Positions 2,608 to 48,952 are shown, counted from the stretch's first letter. The stretch: 64,000 nt of DNA from Candidatus Aminicenantes bacterium UBA6072 (GCA_002436105.1 DIXU01000008.1:145979-209978); one strand, 5' to 3'. A program made the numbers and translations. The notes: generated by a model not told the origin, from the letters alone.

Positions 2608-3510
2608 ATGAAACGCAGCAGCGAACGGATCCTGCTGATGCTGAACCCTGCCTCCGGATTCATTTCCAAGGACATCGCCGGTTCGCTGATCATCCGCAAG
2701 CTGCGCCGCCATTTCGCCAGTGTTTCACTGGTCAATACCCGCTCGGCGCTGCAGGCCCGGGAGATCGCCCGCCAGGGCTTGAAGCACTTCGACGTGTTCG
2801 TGGCCTTCGGCGGCGACGGCACGGTGAACTCGGTGGCCGGCGCCCTGGTCAACCGCGACAAGATCCTGGGCATCCTCCCGGGCGGCTCGGGAAACGGCCT
2901 GGCGCGCAACCTGGGTCTCCACCTGTCCTGGCTGCGCGCCCTCGATACGCTGATCAGCGGCCAGGACGTGAGCATCGACGCCGGCGACATCAATGGCCGT
3001 CTGTTTTTCAATGTCGCCGGCATGGGGCTGGATGGCCTGATATCCAAGAAATTCAACCTGGAATCCAGGGCGCGCGGCATCCTGCCGTATGTCTATTTCG
3101 CCCTGAAAGGCTATATGGAAATGCCCCCGTTCCGCGTGCGGGTCCGTACCGAAAACAATGAGTTCGAGGAGGACATCCTGATCCTGGCCCTGGCCAACTT
3201 CCGCGAGTACGGCGCCAAGGCCGTCATCGCCCCCCACGCCTCCCCCTACGACCGGCTGCTCGACCTTTGCCTGCTGAAGAAGTTCAATCTGCTGCAGTCA
3301 TCGCTGAACGTGCAGCGGCTGTTCACCGGGACGATCCACAAGTTCCCGTTCTACCGGACGTTCAAGTTCGAGCAGGCGCACATCCGCTCGCTGAGCGGCC
3401 CGATCCCCTATCACTTCGACGGCGAGTACGGAGGCAACGATCTGGAAGCGTTCGACGTGCGCGTGCTGCCGGCGGCGGTGCGCGTGCGCATCCGTTCCAT
3501 CAGGGAATAA
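2608..3510 (+). CDS. lipid kinase, diacylglycerol-kinase catalytic domain family (YegS/BmrU-like)
   Basis: FGGDGTVNSVAGAL motif and LPGGSGNGLARNLG, typical of the DAGK_cat family. Confidence 0.7.
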   Translation: MKRSSERILLMLNPASGFISKDIAGSLIIRKLRRHFASVSLVNTRSALQAREIARQGLKHFDVFVAFGGDGTVNSVAGALVNRDKILGILPGGSGNGLARNLGLHLSWLRALDTLISGQDVSIDAGDINGRLFFNVAGMGLDGLISKKFNLESRARGILPYVYFALKGYMEMPPFRVRVRTENNEFEEDILILALANFREYGAKAVIAPHASPYDRLLDLCLLKKFNLLQSSLNVQRLFTGTIHKFPFYRTFKFEQAHIRSLSGPIPYHFDGEYGGNDLEAFDVRVLPAAVRVRIRSIRE

Positions 3511-3559: not shown

Positions 3560-3991
3560 TCAGTCCACAGAGGACGCTTTCTGCTCCGTCACCAGGCCGA
3601 GAATTTCGACCTGAGCTTCCTTGATGGCGTTCATCACGTCGACCACCTTGCCGTATGCGGCTTCCAGGTCAGCCTTCAACAGGACCTTCTTTTCGGTCCG
3701 CTGCATTTCCTCCATCTTGTCGAGGATCAGCTGCCCCAACTTCGCCAGATCTTCCACCGGGGTTTCATCCAGAGCCACTTCCCCGGTCTTCTTGACGTAG
3801 ACGGTGAACATCTGGCTGGGATCGGGCTGGTTGGCCACGTACTTGGCTTCAGGCAGAGTGACGTTGGCCCCCTTCTGGATCATTGGCGTCACGATCATGA
3901 AAATGATCAGCAATACCAGGAGGATATCGCAGAGAGGCACAACGTTTGGTTCAGACTTCGCGGTGCTCGTCCCGCCGATATCGACGCTCAT
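3560..3991 (-). CDS. exbD: biopolymer transport protein ExbD/TolR
   Basis: 143 aa with a single N-terminal TM and an ExbD-like periplasmic domain. Downstream of exbB and tonB on the same strand. Confidence 0.8.
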   Translation of the reverse strand: MSVDIGGTSTAKSEPNVVPLCDILLVLLIIFMIVTPMIQKGANVTLPEAKYVANQPDPSQMFTVYVKKTGEVALDETPVEDLAKLGQLILDKMEEMQRTEKKVLLKADLEAAYGKVVDVMNAIKEAQVEILGLVTEQKASSVD

Positions 3992-4003
3992 AGTCGACTC
4001 CCT

Positions 4004-4678
4004 TTACTTGGACTTCAGCTTGATAAAATGATCAATCAGCTCCGAGGAGGCGTTGGCCATTTCACCGGTGAAGATGTCCACGCGGTTCAGCAACACGTTG
4101 AAGAACCAGACGGCAACGACGGCAACGATGATGCCGAAGCCGGTGGTGATCAGGGCCTCGGCGATGCCGCCGGCGACGGCGCCGATGCCGCCCGATCCGG
4201 AGACCTTCATGCCCTGGAAGGCGGTGATGATGCCGAACACGGTGCCGAACAGGCCGACGAACGGACCGGTGGAGCCGATGGTCGCCAGGCCGTTCAAGCC
4301 TCTCTTGAATTCCTGAACGCCCTTGATGGTGGCGCGCTCAATGGCCCGCTTGGCGGATTCGACCACTTCGGGCTGGGCCGAGCGGTTGTCCTGCTGGAAC
4401 TGCAGCTCGTTCAGGCCGGCGACCAGCACCTTGGCCAGGTGGCTGTTCTTGAAGCGCTTGTCGGAGGACAGCTTGATGGATTCCTCCACCTTGCCCTCGC
4501 GCCAGAGGCCGGAGATCAGCTTGAGCAGGTCGCGGGACTGCTTTTTCGCCTTGTTGAACACGATCGCCCTTTCGATGCCGGTGGCGAAGCAATAGACCGA
4601 CATGAACAAGAGGGTGAAGACGACCGCCCGGGGAACAAAACTCATACTGTGCCACATTTCAACTAGATCCCATGACAT
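4004..4678 (-). CDS. exbB: MotA/TolQ/ExbB proton-channel protein
   Basis: 224 aa with three TM segments. Conserved C-terminal TolQ/ExbB region (GLxGTVxGI). Confidence 0.8.
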   Translation of the reverse strand: MSWDLVEMWHSMSFVPRAVVFTLLFMSVYCFATGIERAIVFNKAKKQSRDLLKLISGLWREGKVEESIKLSSDKRFKNSHLAKVLVAGLNELQFQQDNRSAQPEVVESAKRAIERATIKGVQEFKRGLNGLATIGSTGPFVGLFGTVFGIITAFQGMKVSGSGGIGAVAGGIAEALITTGFGIIVAVVAVWFFNVLLNRVDIFTGEMANASSELIDHFIKLKSK

Positions 4679-4739
4679 AGGAAACCTCCTAAATTGGTTT
4701 TATTTATTAATTCTGCCCGTGGATTTGACCACGTGGGAA

Positions 4740-5489
4740 TTACTGGTTCTGCAGGGTGAACGTGACCGTGGCCGTGAAAATGACCGGCTTCGGGATGCCG
4801 TTCAGGATGTACGGCTCATAGACCCATTGCTTGATGGCGCTGATGGCCGCGTCATTGAGCAGCGGGTGGCCGGCCACGACCCGGGCGTTGCGCACGCGGC
4901 CGTAAATGTCGGTCATGGCCTCGATGATGACCACGCCCTGGATGCGGGCCGTCAGGGCGATCTGGGGATAGATGGGCTTGACCTGCTTGATCAGCTTGGG
5001 ACGCTGCACGCTGGCGATGCGGATGGCCTGGTCGGCCCCCTCGATCAGCTGGCCGCCCTCAACGCCGCCCAGGACGCCGCCGACAACGCCGCCTTCGACT
5101 CCGCCCTCGACGCCGCCCTCGACGCCGCCATCGATCCCGAAGCTGCCGATGTCCTCTTCCTGGATGATCGTGGGCACCTCGATGGGTGCGACCAGGCGGC
5201 CGGCGATGATCGGCCGCGCTTCGACTTTTTTGGCCTCTTCAGCGGCTTTCTGCTGGCCGCCGCTCTTTTTCTTGGCCGCCGGCGGGGGCGGGGGCGGGGG
5301 CGGGGGCGGGGAACCGATGAAGACATTGGTCACCTTGATTTCCGGCAGGTTGGAGTCGGCCATCATCAAGGGGACAACGACAAAGGAAGCGACCGCGATG
5401 CCATGGATCAGCAGAGAGATGGGCAGGGTCAAGTATTTCTTGGTTGCTTTGCGCTTCTCTCCCGATATGATCAAGGATTCGCCAAACAT
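4740..5489 (-). CDS. tonB: energy transducer TonB (Pro-rich and GGVEGG-repeat linker)
   Basis: N-terminal TM, a P11 tract, (K/A/E)-rich and GGVEGGVEGGV repeats, and a C-terminal TonB domain. RBS GGAGG upstream of ATG 5489. Confidence 0.8.
   Translation of the reverse strand: MFGESLIISGEKRKATKKYLTLPISLLIHGIAVASFVVVPLMMADSNLPEIKVTNVFIGSPPPPPPPPPPAAKKKSGGQQKAAEEAKKVEARPIIAGRLVAPIEVPTIIQEEDIGSFGIDGGVEGGVEGGVEGGVVGGVLGGVEGGQLIEGADQAIRIASVQRPKLIKQVKPIYPQIALTARIQGVVIIEAMTDIYGRVRNARVVAGHPLLNDAAISAIKQWVYEPYILNGIPKPVIFTATVTFTLQNQ
5058..5312. repeat. in-frame coding microsatellites inside tonB: 12-nt GACGCCGCCCTC-like repeats and (GGGGGC)n
   Basis: About 7 tandem 12-mers at 5058-5140 (encoding GGVEGG) and a (GGGGGC)x5-6 tract at 5281-5311 (encoding poly-Pro), read directly. 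Confidence 0.7.
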
Positions 5490-8699: not shown

Positions 8700-10860
<2,161 letters not shown>

Positions 10861-43667: not shown

Positions 43668-44135
43668 CTACAAGCGAAATCCCAGCGTCGCGCCCACCAC
43701 CGTGTTCTTGAAAAGGCTGTTGAAATCCATGATGACGTAGGCGGTCAACTTGAGGTTCCTGGAGAACAGCCCGGCGTTCAGCTTGAGCGCGAAATCGTCG
43801 GAGACGAAGGTTTCGCCGCTGCCGATGTAGATGCCCTTGACCAGGCCGCCGCCTACAAAAAAGTTGCTGGGGGTGAAATTCAGGACCGCTCCCGGGAAGA
43901 GGAGGAATTCCTTGAACTTGAAGCCGTTGCCCACCAGCGTCACCTCGGGGCTGAGCATCAGGTACTGGCCGAGCTGGAGATCGATCTCGGCCCCGGCCGT
44001 CCACAGCAGGGGGTCGAAGGAGAAACTATCGTCGGTCATGATGCCGAAGTTGACGCCGAAGGTCGTCTGTTTTTCAAAAGCGTACAAGCCCGAGACCAGC
44101 AGCAGTCCGCAGAGAACCATGAGTGCTTTTTTCAT
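43668..44135 (-). CDS. small outer-membrane beta-barrel protein (third paralog type)
   Basis: MKKALMVLCGLLLVSGLYAF signal peptide, alternating strands. The N-terminus of the track ORF is discarded. Confidence 0.5.
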   Translation of the reverse strand: MKKALMVLCGLLLVSGLYAFEKQTTFGVNFGIMTDDSFSFDPLLWTAGAEIDLQLGQYLMLSPEVTLVGNGFKFKEFLLFPGAVLNFTPSNFFVGGGLVKGIYIGSGETFVSDDFALKLNAGLFSRNLKLTAYVIMDFNSLFKNTVVGATLGFRL

Positions 44136-44199
44136 TTTTCCTCCTTGATTATCTGGAAAAACTATATTGAATGGCAAAGTCAAAGTCAATGCACGGCAT

Positions 44200-46560
44200 T
44201 CAGTTGTCCAGCCGCTCCAGGAGCAATTTGAGGATGAAGCGCGCCGCGGCCTTGGGATTGCCGCCGGCGCGGATGGCCGGGCCGACGCAGGAGGGGCAGC
44301 CGCCCGGGCAGGGGCAGTTCTCGATGATCTCCAGCGCCTTCTCCAGCAGCAGGTTTCCCTTCTCGTACAGGGTTTCGGAAAATCCGACGCCGCCCGGGTA
44401 CCTGTCGAAGATGAAGACATTGGGCTCGAAGCGGTCGACGAAGGCCATGTCCGCCTGGCCGCGCATCATGCCCTTGAGCGCTCCCGGGTGCAGCGGCTCC
44501 TTGGTCAGGTTGTCCTCGATGGCCACGCCCAGGTCGCGGGTGTCGCACAACAGGATGACCGGGCTGATCTGCCTGACCAGGTAGGCGATGCCGGAGACGG
44601 CCTCGAGCTTCTCCTCGTTGGCGAAATCCAGGCCCTGCAGCACCTCGTTCTTCACTGTCAGCCAGAAGCCGGTGGTGTGCATCTCCTGCTGCGGCAGCTG
44701 CAGCTCGCCGGCGCCGACGTTCTCCATGGTGAAGAACTTCAGCTTCTTGAAGCCCACCACCTGGGAGAAGACGTGGACGTCGCCGCAAGAGAAATTCACG
44801 TTCTTTTTCCGGGTCTCGTCGAAGACATCCAGCACCTTGATCTTGGTGTAGGTGATCGAGTCAGTGAAGTAATCGGCGTTGGAGCGGGTCAGGAAGGCCT
44901 TGCGGTTCTCGTAGTCCAGCTCCTCGACGATGTACTGCTCCCCTTCCAGGATGTAGATGGCCTTGGGATGGAGCGTTTCCAGCGCATCGCTGAAACCGAC
45001 CTCGGCGATCACCCGCTCGCCGTCGCTGCGGTCGACCACGACGAAGTTGTCGGAGGTGACGCGGGTGAGGCTGACGGCGTCGGCCGGGTAGCCCTCCTCG
45101 GTCCAGAACCACTTGCCGTCCTTGGCCAGCAGCACCTGGTGCTCGGCCAGGTAAGAGAGGATCTCTTCCAGGTCCTCGGAGCCGAAGCGGTCCCCCCGGG
45201 CGAAGGGCAGCTCGAAGGCGGCGCACTTGACATGATCGACGAGCAGGGTCAGGTTATCGGCGTTGATGCGCCCCATTTCGGGCGACTGGCCGGAGAAATA
45301 CTCGGGATGGCTGACGATGTACTGGTCGATGGGCATCGAGGAGGCGACCAGCACGCCCAGCGACGGGCCGCCGCGGCGGCCGGCGCGGCCGAGGCGCTGC
45401 CAGGTCGAGGAGATCGATCCCGGGTAGGAGGCCAGCACGGCGGCGTCGAGCGAGCCGATGTCGATGCCCAGTTCCAGGGCGTTGGTGGCGACCACGGCGC
45501 GGATCCTGCCCTGGCGCAGCTCCTTCTCGATCTCGCGCCGCTGCCTGGGCAGGTAGCCGCCGCGGTAGCCGCGCACCGTGTCGCGGTCCTGAACGGTCTT
45601 CTCGAAGTCGTTCTTCAGGTACTTGACCAGGATCTCGGTGATCAGCCTGGAGTTGGCGAAGGTGATCACCTGCAGGCCGTGCCGGAGGAGAATGCCGGCG
45701 ATCTCGCGCGTCATGGAGACGTAGGAGCGGCGGATGCCCAGCTGCTTGTTGACCACCGGCGGGTTGAAGAACACCAGGAACTTCTCGCCGCGCGGCGCGC
45801 CGTTGCGGTCGACCAGCGCCACCTCCTCCTCGATCAGCTTCCCGGCCAGCTCGGCCGGGTTGGCGATGGTGGCCGAGCTCATGATGAACACCGGCTTCGT
45901 GCCGTAGAAGGAGCAGACGCGCTTCAGGCGGCGCATGACGTTGGCCACGTGCGAGCCGAAGACGCCGGTGTAGTAGTGCAGCTCGTCGATGACCACGTAC
46001 TTCAGGTTCTCGAACAGGCCGGCCCACTTGGTGTGGTGCGGCAGGATGCCGGAATGGAGCATGTAGGGATTGGTGATCACGATCTGCGCCTGCTTGCGGA
46101 TGGCCTGGCGCATGCTGGTCGGCGTGTCGCCGTCGTAGGTGTAAAGCCCCAGTGTCTCCCCCAGCGCCTTGTTCAGGTCGAACAGCTCGGCCAGCTGGTC
46201 CTGGGAAAGGGCTTTGGTCGGGAAGAGGTAGAGCGACTTGGCCTGCGGGTCGCGCTGCAGGGCGTCGAGCGCGGCGGCGTTGTAGATCAGCGTCTTGCCC
46301 GAGGCGGTCGGCGTGGCCACCACCGTATGGCGGCCCGCCAGGACGTTGTCCAGCGCCGCGGCCTGGTGGGAAAAGAGGCGCTCGATGCCGCGCTGTTTAT
46401 AGATCTCGACGATCTCGGGCGCCAGCCGCCCGGGAAAATCGGCGAATTCGCCGCTGAAGGGATCGATGCGGATCAGGCGCAGCTCGGTCTCGACGTCGTT
46501 GCGCAGCTGGAACAGGTCCTTCAGCGCCAGCTCGACCCGGGAATTCTTGCCATCGTCCAT
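44200..46560 (-). CDS. DEAD/DEAH-box helicase with C-terminal DUF1998 zinc domain (YprA/MrfA-like)
   Basis: ATPTASGKT, VIDELH, SAT, QRLGRAGRRG motifs. C-terminal CPCPGGCPSC four-Cys cluster. Confidence 0.8.
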   Translation of the reverse strand: MDDGKNSRVELALKDLFQLRNDVETELRLIRIDPFSGEFADFPGRLAPEIVEIYKQRGIERLFSHQAAALDNVLAGRHTVVATPTASGKTLIYNAAALDALQRDPQAKSLYLFPTKALSQDQLAELFDLNKALGETLGLYTYDGDTPTSMRQAIRKQAQIVITNPYMLHSGILPHHTKWAGLFENLKYVVIDELHYYTGVFGSHVANVMRRLKRVCSFYGTKPVFIMSSATIANPAELAGKLIEEEVALVDRNGAPRGEKFLVFFNPPVVNKQLGIRRSYVSMTREIAGILLRHGLQVITFANSRLITEILVKYLKNDFEKTVQDRDTVRGYRGGYLPRQRREIEKELRQGRIRAVVATNALELGIDIGSLDAAVLASYPGSISSTWQRLGRAGRRGGPSLGVLVASSMPIDQYIVSHPEYFSGQSPEMGRINADNLTLLVDHVKCAAFELPFARGDRFGSEDLEEILSYLAEHQVLLAKDGKWFWTEEGYPADAVSLTRVTSDNFVVVDRSDGERVIAEVGFSDALETLHPKAIYILEGEQYIVEELDYENRKAFLTRSNADYFTDSITYTKIKVLDVFDETRKKNVNFSCGDVHVFSQVVGFKKLKFFTMENVGAGELQLPQQEMHTTGFWLTVKNEVLQGLDFANEEKLEAVSGIAYLVRQISPVILLCDTRDLGVAIEDNLTKEPLHPGALKGMMRGQADMAFVDRFEPNVFIFDRYPGGVGFSETLYEKGNLLLEKALEIIENCPCPGGCPSCVGPAIRAGGNPKAAARFILKLLLERLDN

Positions 46561-46608
46561 AGCTGGAAATTAGCATAAAAAGCCGGAATAGTAAAATAAC
46601 GAACTATC

Positions 46609-46864
46609 GTAACGCGTGACGCGTGACGCGTGACGCGAAAGAACCCTGAGGTAATCCTGATCACATCTATCTTTGTTTTCGCTGGTCTGAGTATACTGGC
46701 GAACCCATGCAACGCATGACAAGCAAGCGCCGAGGGGCAATCCCGATCAAGTTCACCGCATTAATTCACTTGGTAGTGGCGTCGCTTTGTTCTTTTATTC
46801 AATGCCCATTTATAAAGATTGATTCCTGTGGTTACATGTCACGCGTTACGCGTTACGCGTCACG
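46609..46864. repeat. inverted arrays of ACGCGTG heptamer repeats flanking an AT-richer core of about 200 bp
   Basis: ACGCGTGACGCGTGACGCGTGACGCG at 46612-46637. Its near-reverse-complement CACGCGTTACGCGTTACGCGTCACG at 46840-46864 overlaps the trx stop. Confidence 0.7.
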
Positions 46865-47240
46865 TAGTCTTCGGTTCTTCCTTCTTGACTCCCAGGATCT
46901 CGGCGATCGCCTTGTCGAAGCCGCGGCGGTCCATGGCGCCGCGGGCCATCTGCGGCGGGCCGGAAACGGGGATGAACAGCAGGCTGGGGATGCTCTGGAT
47001 GCCGAAGGCGCCGGCCAGCTCCTGTTCCTTGTCGGTGTCGACCTTGTAAACGGCCAGCTGGCCGTCATAATCGGCGGAGATCTTCTCCAGGATCGGGGTC
47101 ACCATCTTGCACGGCCCGCACCAGTCGGCGTAAAAGTCGATGATGGCCGGCAGCGTGCCGCGGTATTTCCACTCCTTCTCGTTCTCGTAGTCGAATACCT
47201 TCTCGATGAACGCTTGCTTGTCCAGTTTTTCCATGTTCAT
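46860..47240 (-). CDS. trxA: thioredoxin
   Basis: WCGPC active site. Confidence 0.85.
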   Translation of the reverse strand: MNMEKLDKQAFIEKVFDYENEKEWKYRGTLPAIIDFYADWCGPCKMVTPILEKISADYDGQLAVYKVDTDKEQELAGAFGIQSIPSLLFIPVSGPPQMARGAMDRRGFDKAIAEILGVKKEEPKTT

Positions 47241-47644
47241 GCTCCTTGTTTATTTTTTTGCTTGCGAAAGGCGATGAAGTCGCGGACCACGCCCATGTCG
47301 CAGGCACGGCCCCTCTGGAAGCGGCGGCAGAACAGCTCCAGGTTCTTGCGGTCGGAGGCGAACGGCTTGCCCCCGGGGTGGCTTGCGGCCAGGGCGTTCA
47401 TCACGGCGAGCCCAACGGGCGGCAGCGCCCCGCTGAGGCGATAGAACACATGCTTGCCCTGGCGGCGCGACGCCGCCAGGCCTTCGCGCTCCAGCAGGGC
47501 CATGCTGCGCGATACCAGGGACTGGGACAGCCCGGTGACGGCCATGAGCTGGCAGACGAAGAGCTCCCGGGCCTGCAGCAGCAGCAGCAGGCGCAGGCGG
47601 TTCTCGTCAGCCAGGGTTTTCAGGATGCGGACGTCGCTTATCAC
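47237..47644 (-). CDS. ArsR/SmtB-family transcriptional regulator
   Basis: Winged-HTH (LRLLLLLQ...ELFVCQL) with Cys in a metal-site-like position. 4-nt overlap with trx. Confidence 0.75.
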   Translation of the reverse strand: MISDVRILKTLADENRLRLLLLLQARELFVCQLMAVTGLSQSLVSRSMALLEREGLAASRRQGKHVFYRLSGALPPVGLAVMNALAASHPGGKPFASDRKNLELFCRRFQRGRACDMGVVRDFIAFRKQKNKQGA

Positions 47645-47690
47645 ATCAACATATTAACATTTGTTTTTTTGTTTGTCAACTTTTTTGCCT

Positions 47691-47806
47691 GTAGACGAGT
47701 AGACGGGTTGATGGGTAGAAGGGTTAACGGCACTGGCAACGAGTTCTTGCGAGCGCCTCATCCCTCTGACTCTTCAACCCCTGAACTCTTCTACCCTTCT
47801 ACGTCT
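47691..47806. repeat. inverted arrays of GTAGANGG-like octamer repeats around rluA 3' end
   Basis: gtagacga gtagacgg gttgatgg gtagaagg gttaacgg at 47691-47730, and reverse-complement units (tagaaggg, tagaagag) at 47785-47806. Confidence 0.55.
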
Positions 47807-48684: not shown

Positions 48685-48731
48685 GGCGGAATTGTAGAAC
48701 CCGGGCTTGGGTCTGTCAAACAAAAAATCAA

Positions 48732-48849
48732 AACTCGGTGTACGGTCCACGGTTGACGGCAAGAGAAGAGTTGCGAAATTCATATTGCATCGCCGCAATA
48801 CTTCTTCTTGACCGTACACCGTATACCGTCCACCGTGAACCGAGTTCGG
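48732..48849. repeat. about 118-bp imperfect palindrome built from inverted CGGTNNN / ACCGNNN heptamer arrays
   Basis: Left arm cggtgta cggtcca cggttga. Right arm accgtac accgtat accgtcc accgtga accg. Central ttgcg...cgcaa inner inverted repeat. Confidence 0.65.
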
Positions 48850-48870
48850 AGAGCAGAAAAAACGAATTCC

Positions 48871-48899
48871 TTGACAATCGAGGTCATATAATTTATAAA
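48871..48899 (+). promoter_or_regulatory. sigma70-like promoter TTGACA-17-TATAAA for acs
   Basis: Hexamers at 48871-48876 and 48894-48899. A leader of about 50 nt with GGAGGG RBS before ATG 48953. Confidence 0.5.
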
Positions 48900-48952
48900 A
48901 TCGTTTTGCCGGGAACACGCATCTCAACGCAAATCAATGCCTGGAGGGCTGT

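Follow-up and report, generated by a model that had tools for sequence, protein, structure and literature searches.

A heptamer-array element at the 3' end of a thioredoxin gene in Candidatus Aminicenantes and its probable kinship with four-helix-bundle intervening sequences

The gap between a thioredoxin gene (trx) and a DEAD-box helicase gene in a 64,000-nucleotide stretch of Candidatus Aminicenantes DNA (the whole of which is referred to here as the window) harbours a small element bounded by inverted arrays of ACGCGTR heptamers. This element quite likely belongs to a class of intervening-sequence (IVS) type in which heptamer arrays accompany a four-helix-bundle gene, a placement made from arm architecture alone, since neither the window nor the corresponding loci of relatives contain such a gene. 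The class has the form of convergent arrays of about four tandem heptamers, or sometimes octamers. Its arrays are associated with the four-helix-bundle gene, and the gene-bearing elements are intergenic and co-transcribed in their placement. An element of this kind has long been resident at the trx-helicase site, with turnover of both its unit and its core.

The window copy is probably an ordinary relic, and the real interest lies in the general link between arrays and gene. Intergenic heptamer repeats have so far been reported piecemeal, with no agreed origin or function in the literature searched; an explanation is likewise lacking for the 23S rRNA intervening sequences and for the 'four helix bundle protein' genes, which are very common. 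All three are brought together by the data presented here, which yield a specific model, open to testing, of a class of repeats found in many phyla.

Architecture and surroundings of the element

The features discussed in this report are as follows.

44200-46560, minus strand: DEAD-box helicase gene, MrfA/Hrq1-like, 786 aa, the downstream gene
46561-46607, minus strand: AT-rich block, 47 bp, 31.9% GC, separating the element from the helicase start
46608-46864, 257 bp: whole element, two inverted ACGCGTR heptamer arrays around a non-coding core
46608-46637, no strand: left arm, CGTA + (ACGCGTG)x3 + ACGCGAA
46638-46837, no strand: core, 200 bp, 44.6% GC
46838-46864, no strand: right arm, GTC + ACGCGTT x2 + ACGCGTC + ACG
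46860-47240, minus strand: thioredoxin gene (trx), the end of its ORF lying within the right arm
47237-47644, minus strand: gene for an ArsR-family regulator
48738-48850, no strand: second heptamer-periodic inverted repeat, with ACGGTNN x3 / NNACCGT x4 arms and a core of about 48 bp

Two arrays of period 7 were identified with Tandem Repeats Finder, at 46608-46637 (4.3 copies) and at 46841-46864 (3.4 copies). The + strand reads ...ctatCGTA ACGCGTG ACGCGTG ACGCGTG ACGCGAAag... at 46608-46640 and ...catGTC ACGCGTT ACGCGTT ACGCGTC ACGtag... at 46835-46867. The left arm is of the 'R-type', its spacer being a purine on the + strand, and its outer edge (CGTR) and inner edge (ACGCGA) fit the family consensus (aat)CGTR-(ACGCGTR)n-ACGSG(A) obtained from 142 arrays. 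The right arm is of the 'Y-type' and convergent with the left one, and a degenerate additional heptamer carries it inward to 46829. The best inverted repeat (46608-46634 with 46838-46864) comprised 27 nt, 89% complementary, at a spacing of 203 nt; on the sense strand, its 27 positions form 24 Watson-Crick pairs, one G.U and two A.C. The inverted ACGCGT-heptamer arrays described in the earlier note are therefore real, and the description of the arms as reverse complements with two mismatches is accurate for a 23-nt register (46615-46637 with 46842-46864, 91%). The motif ACGCGTNACGCGT, with at most one mismatch, was matched five times in the 64 kb, always in the element, compared with 0.06 times expected from shuffled sequences. 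The two arms account for 6 of the 11 ACGCGT sites of the window, which contains a single element of the ACGCGTR type.

The core had been described as about 200 bp long, with about 45% GC, and foreign to the genome. The measured size and composition agreed with this description. The foreign origin was not supported: the whole window has a GC content of 62.3%, and other intergenic gaps are as low as the core (46.7% at 44005-44199, 44.5% at 47645-47790 and 47.0% at 48700-48952), so the core has the GC content of ordinary non-coding DNA of this genome. No credible ORF, Rfam match or four-helix-bundle remnant was detected in the core. By blastn, it had no match elsewhere in the window or in any locus retrieved, and only the arms were matched. 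Nothing in the window reached the Rfam gathering score, and in 46400-47000 a permissive threshold yielded only chance-level matches. No tRNA or tmRNA was found, and no rRNA is present in the window. The six-frame translations of the window and of loci L120-L127 gave no match to PF05635 in hmmsearch at E up to 10, and the window copy was accordingly filed as ORF-less.

The element sits in the 299-bp gap between trx and the helicase gene, and not in a 23S rRNA helix. The helicase presents WHD_HRQ1 and MrfA Zn-binding domains, with a C-terminal Zn-binding MZB domain. As had been noticed earlier, the right arm overlaps the trx stop codon. The TGA at 46860-46862 lies within this arm and is formed by its outermost GTGAC heptamer, and the element thus sets the C-terminus of the thioredoxin. 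The trx stop likewise comes from the first GTGAC heptamer in several relatives (L120, with the trx end at 9851-9853; L124, at 9709-9711; L126; and L210), and in L211 the stop (TAA) is upstream of the arms. The 47-bp block on the other side of the element was conserved in all aligned relatives irrespective of their cores, and is a putative helicase promoter or leader (TTTACT-N17-TAATTT). A scan for consensus promoters returned no site on the - strand (the gene strand). A terminator scan of 46300-47100 returned no terminator-like site and no U-tract, and the loop of the hairpin is 203 nt.

The two arms had been claimed to be able to pair, and a fold prediction was run. In agreement with the claim, the arms were paired in the predicted MFE and centroid folds of both strands. 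The fold energy was -96.6 kcal/mol for the gene strand (z = -2.7) and -104.5 kcal/mol for the opposite, + strand (z = -3.5), the strand antisense to the genes folding slightly better.

The array family and the history of the trx-helicase site

GTDB, represented by one genome per species, was scanned for ACGCGTNACGCGTNACGCGT, that is (ACGCGTN)2ACGCGT, and at least 119 loci were recovered. Among the matches listed, about 23 belonged to Vulcanimicrobiota ER2, about 20 to a MAG labelled Synergistia, about 12 to CTOTU7676 and about 9 to ER1; all of these genomes have about 36% GC, and such a G+C-rich motif is very unexpected there. The other matches listed were from Aminicenantes, Acidobacteria, Acetothermia/Bipolaricaulota, Bacteroidota, Planctomycetota, Chloroflexota, Nitrospirota, Clostridia, Verrucomicrobiota and others. 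Additional copies, for which the earlier note proposed a search, were thus found for the arms, which recur at these loci in many phyla, but not for the core, which matched neither the rest of the window nor the loci retrieved.

The arrays are oriented: their outer edge is sharp and their inner one defined, as given by the consensus above, and a spacer with a purine on one strand confers polarity on them. Among the matches listed, pairs of arrays less than 330 bp apart were convergent in 27 cases and divergent in one. Arrays also occurred singly. In the low-GC genomes, 109 of 111 arrays among the matches listed were intergenic. Divergent gaps held 24 of these 109 arrays, compared with 44 of 303 gaps in the background, and tandem and convergent gaps were used as well, with no depletion. 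A terminator-type placement was rejected on this basis, divergent gaps being used at least as often as in the background. The alternative offered in the earlier note, that the element might be just a long terminator hairpin, is likewise disfavoured, as a U-tract is lacking and divergent promoter gaps contain arrays as frequently as other gaps do.

When 2913 ORFs from the 119 loci listed were clustered all against all, no transposase-like family recurred, and only housekeeping families did. Widely spaced convergent pairs contained ordinary housekeeping genes. In 25 pairs, no direct repeat was consistently present outside the arms; an outer 'AT' could be an extension of the inverted repeat and, being self-complementary, is uninformative as to target-site duplication. 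Some copies (for example L110 7901-7927, L071 2281-2307 and L086 4322-4348) have no core at all: their R-type heptamers switch straight to Y-type heptamers, which results in near-perfect palindromes such as aatCGTAACGCGTAACGCGTAACGCGTTACGCGTTACGaat.

The history of the site was followed in relatives with helicase homologues of 85-94% identity, in assemblies labelled Aminicenantes or Acidobacteria. The order arsR-trx-helicase was kept in L120/121, L122/123, L124/125, L126/127 and L210; L211 presented trx, the helicase and the repeat, with no arsR call. Each of the six relatives with trx upstream of the helicase had a heptamer-periodic inverted repeat at this site, indicating that the element is old there and not a recent insertion. 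The unit was GTGACGC/GTAACGC in the window, L124 and L210, GTGACGA/GTAACAG in L120 and L126, GTGATGA in L122 and GTWATGC in L211. Within each genome the arms were complementary (159 of 186 positions Watson-Crick, 8 G.U, 8 A.C and 11 other, for the seven sequences). The loop between the best-paired arms measured 203 nt in the window, 172 nt in L124, 78 nt in L126, 77 nt in L210, 45 nt in L120, 33 nt in L122 and 32 nt in L211, and no alignment was obtained between the cores of the window and its relatives. In the 22-kb loci of the relatives, neither a four-helix-bundle gene nor a remnant of one was found. Judged from these alignments, the arms and core of this old element turn over much faster than the adjoining non-coding DNA.

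More distant helicase homologues (76% and 69% identity) had different upstream genes and no arrays. Upstream of a 69%-identical helicase, at 2340-2500 of L209, a different and long composite palindrome was observed (GGACCCACCTTTTTACAAAAAGGTGGGCCGCCGGAGGCAT ... ATGCCTCCGGCGGCCAGGAACCTTTTTGAAAAAAGGTTCCTGG), which lacks a heptamer period.

The second repeat of the window (48738-48850) lies in the gap between an acyl/acetyl-CoA-synthetase-like (AMP-ligase) gene and a pseudouridine synthase gene. At this site the relatives carried GTTCGNN, TAAGG-like, GTGAT/GTCACGC or CGAACNT arrays, with conserved flanks.

A Y1/RAYT-like transposase gene (303 aa; PF01797, with an NF047646 match below the model cut-off) was observed in L124 at 4046-5064; the corresponding position of the window lacks this gene. 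Flanking it in L124 is a 25-nt, 96% complementary inverted repeat (GGGTCGGTACTTTAATTCTTGTATT), which is unrelated to the heptamer arrays.

Heptamer arrays around four-helix-bundle genes

Two of the 119 loci listed, L074 and L069, contained a convergent pair of arrays with a small gene inside, and no other PF05635 genes were present in this set. In L074 (7040-7532, Acetothermia) the gene encodes a protein of 124 aa, which matched PF05635 (23S_rRNA_IVP) at E = 3e-34 and also TIGR02436 ('four helix bundle protein'). In L069 (87-446, Bacteroidota) a truncated PF05635 copy lies between ACGCGTR arms. A query protein of this family matched PDB 2GSC (XCC0516, a crystallised four-helix-bundle homopentamer) at E = 7.6e-27.

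Eighty PF05635 genes were then considered, taken from metagenome contigs with an alignment of 15 diverse homologues as the query, and not selected on the presence of arrays. This sample consists of the best-scoring 80 of 597 matches and for that reason represents one part of the protein family. Arrays of period 5-9 within 150 bp of the gene were scored with Tandem Repeats Finder for the 70 of the 80 genes with at least 120 bp of flank. Arrays were present on both sides of 44 of these 70 genes and on one side of 18, and the units on the two sides were mutually inverse for 36 of the 70. The dominant period was 7 (74 arrays), followed by 8 (27 arrays). The density of arrays was 4.36/kb within 200 bp of a PF05635 gene and 0.61/kb beyond 400 bp. 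The arrays had a median of 4.3 units, with a mode of 3.5-4.5, and the longest reached 30 units. When the two flanks of each PF05635 locus were compared, their best inverted repeat was almost always a pair of tandem arrays.

The units flanking PF05635 genes were diverse, and included GTGATGG/CCATCAC, CGTGAGG x5, GTGAGTG x15, AGTTACG, AGGGGTC, TTAGGGA and octamers such as GGTTACAG. Arms of the GTGACNN type, as in L120, flanked four-helix-bundle genes in L148, L154 and L163. Arms of the ACGCGT type flanked the genes in L074 and L069 and, in degenerate form, in L128 and L137. The same unit was carried by closely related four-helix-bundle proteins, which indicates that gene and arms are inherited together.

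The PF05635 genes were mostly co-directional with their neighbours (52 of 57 upstream, 49 of 60 downstream and 34 of 44 on both sides). These genes sit in sense orientation within host transcription units, and the model put forward here would account for the finding of four-helix-bundle genes in operons, including cas loci. Zhang et al. listed 18 23S_rRNA_IVP genes within cas loci, one example being located between cmr3 and cmr2 (PMC3936711).

The closest likeness in the literature is with the S23p-type intervening sequences of 23S rRNA in Coxiella burnetii and Leptospira. The Coxiella IVS is a 428-nt 'selfish element' that contains an S23p ORF of the PF05635 family and has a 28-bp terminal stem, which RNase III cleaves in vitro; its tandem GACAGAT heptamers number three to four, depending on the strain (PMC4990558). 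In common with the element described here, these IVSs have terminal inverted repeats forming a stem of about 28 bp, tandem heptamers in their termini, an association with PF05635 at the family level and a sporadic distribution suggestive of horizontal transfer. The window copy differs in that it lies outside rRNA, is ORF-less and has the heptamer ACGCGTR instead of GACAGAT, and RNase III excision is known for the rRNA copies only.

Intergenic tandem heptamers have also been described on their own. In cyanobacteria they were reportedly described as STRR heptamers by Mazel et al. in 1990; they too comprise about four units, but of another sequence. In Xanthomonas, 70-75 convergent pairs of GGGAATC heptamers were reported, with four units preferred (Rehm et al. 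2015, PMC4692102). Most of these arrays lie between genes; they are transcribed, and their authors read them as G-quadruplex repeats (PMC4692102). They resemble the present arrays, as do the GGGGAYT repeats of Nostoc (PMC4692102), in being intergenic tandem heptamers of about four units, and the Xanthomonas arrays additionally in being transcribed, distributed genome-wide and often arranged as convergent inverted pairs. The unit of the GGGAATC and GGGGAYT repeats is nevertheless another one, and the formation of G-quadruplexes proposed for them is impossible for ACGCGTR. One Xanthomonas array abuts a four-helix-bundle gene: array no. 15 of X. campestris (622956-622983) overlaps the start of XCC0516 (-17), as listed in supplementary file 2 of PMC4692102 without comment by the authors, who draw no link between heptamer repeats and four-helix-bundle genes.

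TAACTGA arrays, for their part, are common to Beggiatoaceae, cyanobacteria and Bacteroidetes; horizontal transfer was suspected, for which 'no mechanism is evident' (MacGregor 2015, PMC4679880). Like the arrays studied here they are abundant, intergenic, of 2-6 units and common to distant phyla, but they are mostly single, directly oriented and located just upstream of start codons, with one inverted case reported (PMC4679880). A link between arrays and four-helix-bundle genes was not found in the literature searched, and may exist in subscription papers, which were mostly outside that search. A search for the exact heptamer dimers returned nothing but an unrelated oligonucleotide.

Proposed mechanism, rival explanations and further observations

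We consider it rather probable that the window element is an ORF-less, IVS-type copy of the heptamer-array class, a passive or mildly domesticated relic at the 3' end of trx. The complete form of such an element encloses a gene for a pentamer-forming four-helix bundle (PF05635/TIGR02436, 'S23p', the 23S rRNA intervening-sequence protein, related to the Avd of DGRs). In the arsR-trx message the element would make up the 3' end; since its first arm starts at the trx stop and no terminator precedes it, the arsR-trx transcript should run into it. Once transcription had reached the second arm, the two arms would pair with each other, giving a stem of about 27-33 bp. By analogy with the ORF-bearing IVSs of Coxiella and Leptospira 23S rRNA, for which such cleavage has been demonstrated experimentally, this stem might be cut by RNase III, a step that we put forward tentatively for the window element and that the substitution patterns of the arms (see the G.U and A.C counts below) do not support. 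The cleavage would trim the 3' end of trx and detach it from the helicase, a gene with a conserved upstream block of its own. The window copy is probably passive or mildly domesticated, and not an active transposon. Candidate routes for the spread of the class are recombination or gene conversion between arrays and homing into existing ones; the four-helix-bundle protein might also have an activity that drives it.

The element had been described as MITE-like. What remains of this description is its form: a small non-coding element with terminal inverted repeats, and with arms from a dispersed multi-copy family. It does not extend to the core, which is unrepeated, to the genes around the arrays, which include no recurring transposase, to the age of the element, which is not a recent insertion, or to the gene-bearing form, which contains a four-helix-bundle gene. 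A classical MITE in the strict sense, a deletion derivative of a DNA transposon whose heptamer arrays are multi-site terminal inverted repeats served by a transposase in trans, is distinctly unlikely. The inverted termini do have sharp, conserved outer edges, the family is present in many copies in some genomes and crosses phyla (among the matches listed), and its cores vary down to the coreless palindromes of L110, L071 and L086. Against this, no transposase-like family recurred in the 2913 ORFs near the arrays listed, widely spaced convergent pairs have ordinary housekeeping genes within them, no target-site duplication was seen (the self-complementary outer 'AT' being uninformative), the sole Y1/RAYT-like gene near a relative's locus has an unrelated 25-nt inverted repeat, and the gene found within such arms is that of a four-helix-bundle protein. 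The Correia elements of Neisseria, which are bacterial MITEs, resemble the window element in their small size, intergenic position, lack of coding sequence and terminal inverted repeats; they are co-transcribed with their neighbours, and their hairpin is a substrate of RNase III. The window element differs from them in having no evident TA or other target duplication, no cognate transposase found, arms that are tandem heptamer arrays and a core that is not conserved between copies. REP, BIME and REPIN sequences, which are mobilised by RAYT, are also high-copy intergenic palindromic units, often in inverted pairs, and REPs are lineage-specific. The ACGCGTR family has no GTAG head and no RAYT association, and its sequence is identical across phyla. 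A link with RAYT and REPs was rejected, as the RAYT-like gene of L124 is flanked by an unrelated repeat and no RAYT was found among the 119 loci listed.

Chance replication slippage, creating two independent and unrelated simple-sequence repeats, is effectively refuted: heptamer simple-sequence repeats can expand, and their copy number varies between Coxiella strains (PMC4990558), but five matches were observed in the window for 0.06 expected, the pairing rule is strict (27 convergent to 1 divergent among the matches listed), and the edges of the arrays are conserved. A regulatory hairpin that evolved locally, selected in situ as a terminator, insulator or 3'-end stabiliser of arsR-trx and unrelated to mobile elements, has a slim chance of being correct. 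It would suit the start of the structure at the trx stop codon and its retention in six of six relatives with trx upstream, in which the arms are complementary despite their differing sequence. It is at odds with the lack of a U-tract or terminator-like site, with identical arms in dozens of unrelated intergenic contexts in many phyla, and with the second site of the window (48738-48850), where the same architecture is built of other units; related elements inside operons, such as the cmr3/cmr2 example (PMC3936711), also make efficient termination unlikely. The arrays might instead be putative binding sites, as DNA or single strand, for an oligomeric protein, for example a pentamer with one heptamer per subunit, the functional form being a nucleoprotein or cruciform and not an RNA stem. 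Arrays of about 4-5 units (median 4.3, and four preferred in PMC4692102) would suit the pentamer of PDB 2GSC, related proteins have units in common, and some arrays are single or lie in divergent promoter gaps. The sense strand, moreover, showed no excess of G.U in its arm mismatches, either in 65 gene-bearing elements (G.U 91 vs A.C 108) or at the trx-helicase locus (8 vs 8), and with G.U no commoner than A.C a role at the level of DNA or protein binding is compatible with these counts. This explanation nonetheless appears unlikely, because the unit differs at orthologous sites of close relatives, so that the specificity of the protein would have to co-change rapidly, because arrays can reach 30 units, and because the strong co-orientation of the genes with host transcription points to an RNA-level life style.

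The reading of the window element as an IVS-type relic can be extended, more speculatively, to a single widespread class of selfish elements with convergent heptamer arrays as termini, encoding a pentameric S23p/Avd-like protein. Such a class would unite the 23S rRNA IVSs, the STRRs and the GGGAATC, TAACTGA and ACGCGTR arrays. Its ORF-less copies would depend on the protein, the pentamer of which might bind about one heptamer per subunit, and the elements might be 'transcript parasites' freed by RNase III. We regard this extension as possible but doubtful.

Two further ideas were dropped. Only eight matches were found in 2.9 million viral contigs, with one marginal four-helix-bundle match (E = 1.3e-4), and phages were rejected as the vector, as these eight viral-contig matches came with no credible four-helix-bundle gene. 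The Chi site of Lactococcus is GCGCGTG, and its resemblance to ACGCGTG was set aside because the spacer purine varies and the same sequence is present in many phyla. For practical purposes, the arrays are flagged here because they can lead to false calls of CRISPRs or repeats and to breaks in assemblies.

Some other arrangements were observed in the ACGCGTR family. In a Porphyromonadaceae MAG (L001, 382-1883), an ORF pair lies between ACGCGT arrays 1.75 kb apart; judged by eye it looks like an AbiEi/AbiEii-like toxin-antitoxin pair, and its position between the arrays is probably coincidental. ORF-less elements from MAGs of about 36% GC (L016 1660-1837, L098 3083-3291, L076 2012-2268, L108 3802-3915 and L093 7547-7740) had in common a sub-terminal module beside the inner edge of the arm, GACGGGAGGA...TTTATTA...ATGCTCATGCTCAGGTCAG, which includes a Shine-Dalgarno-like GGAGGA. 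A second module, ...AATAACCGTAATTTGACAGAGTTATTTTCTTAC..., was also common to the ORF-less elements of these MAGs. The modules common to these five loci indicate that sub-families with conserved inner ends exist. In a Planctomycetota MAG (L047), three consecutive intergenic gaps each contained a convergent pair with a short core of 35-41 bp (3029-3109, 3971-4045 and 5344-5428), so that hairpins separate successive genes.
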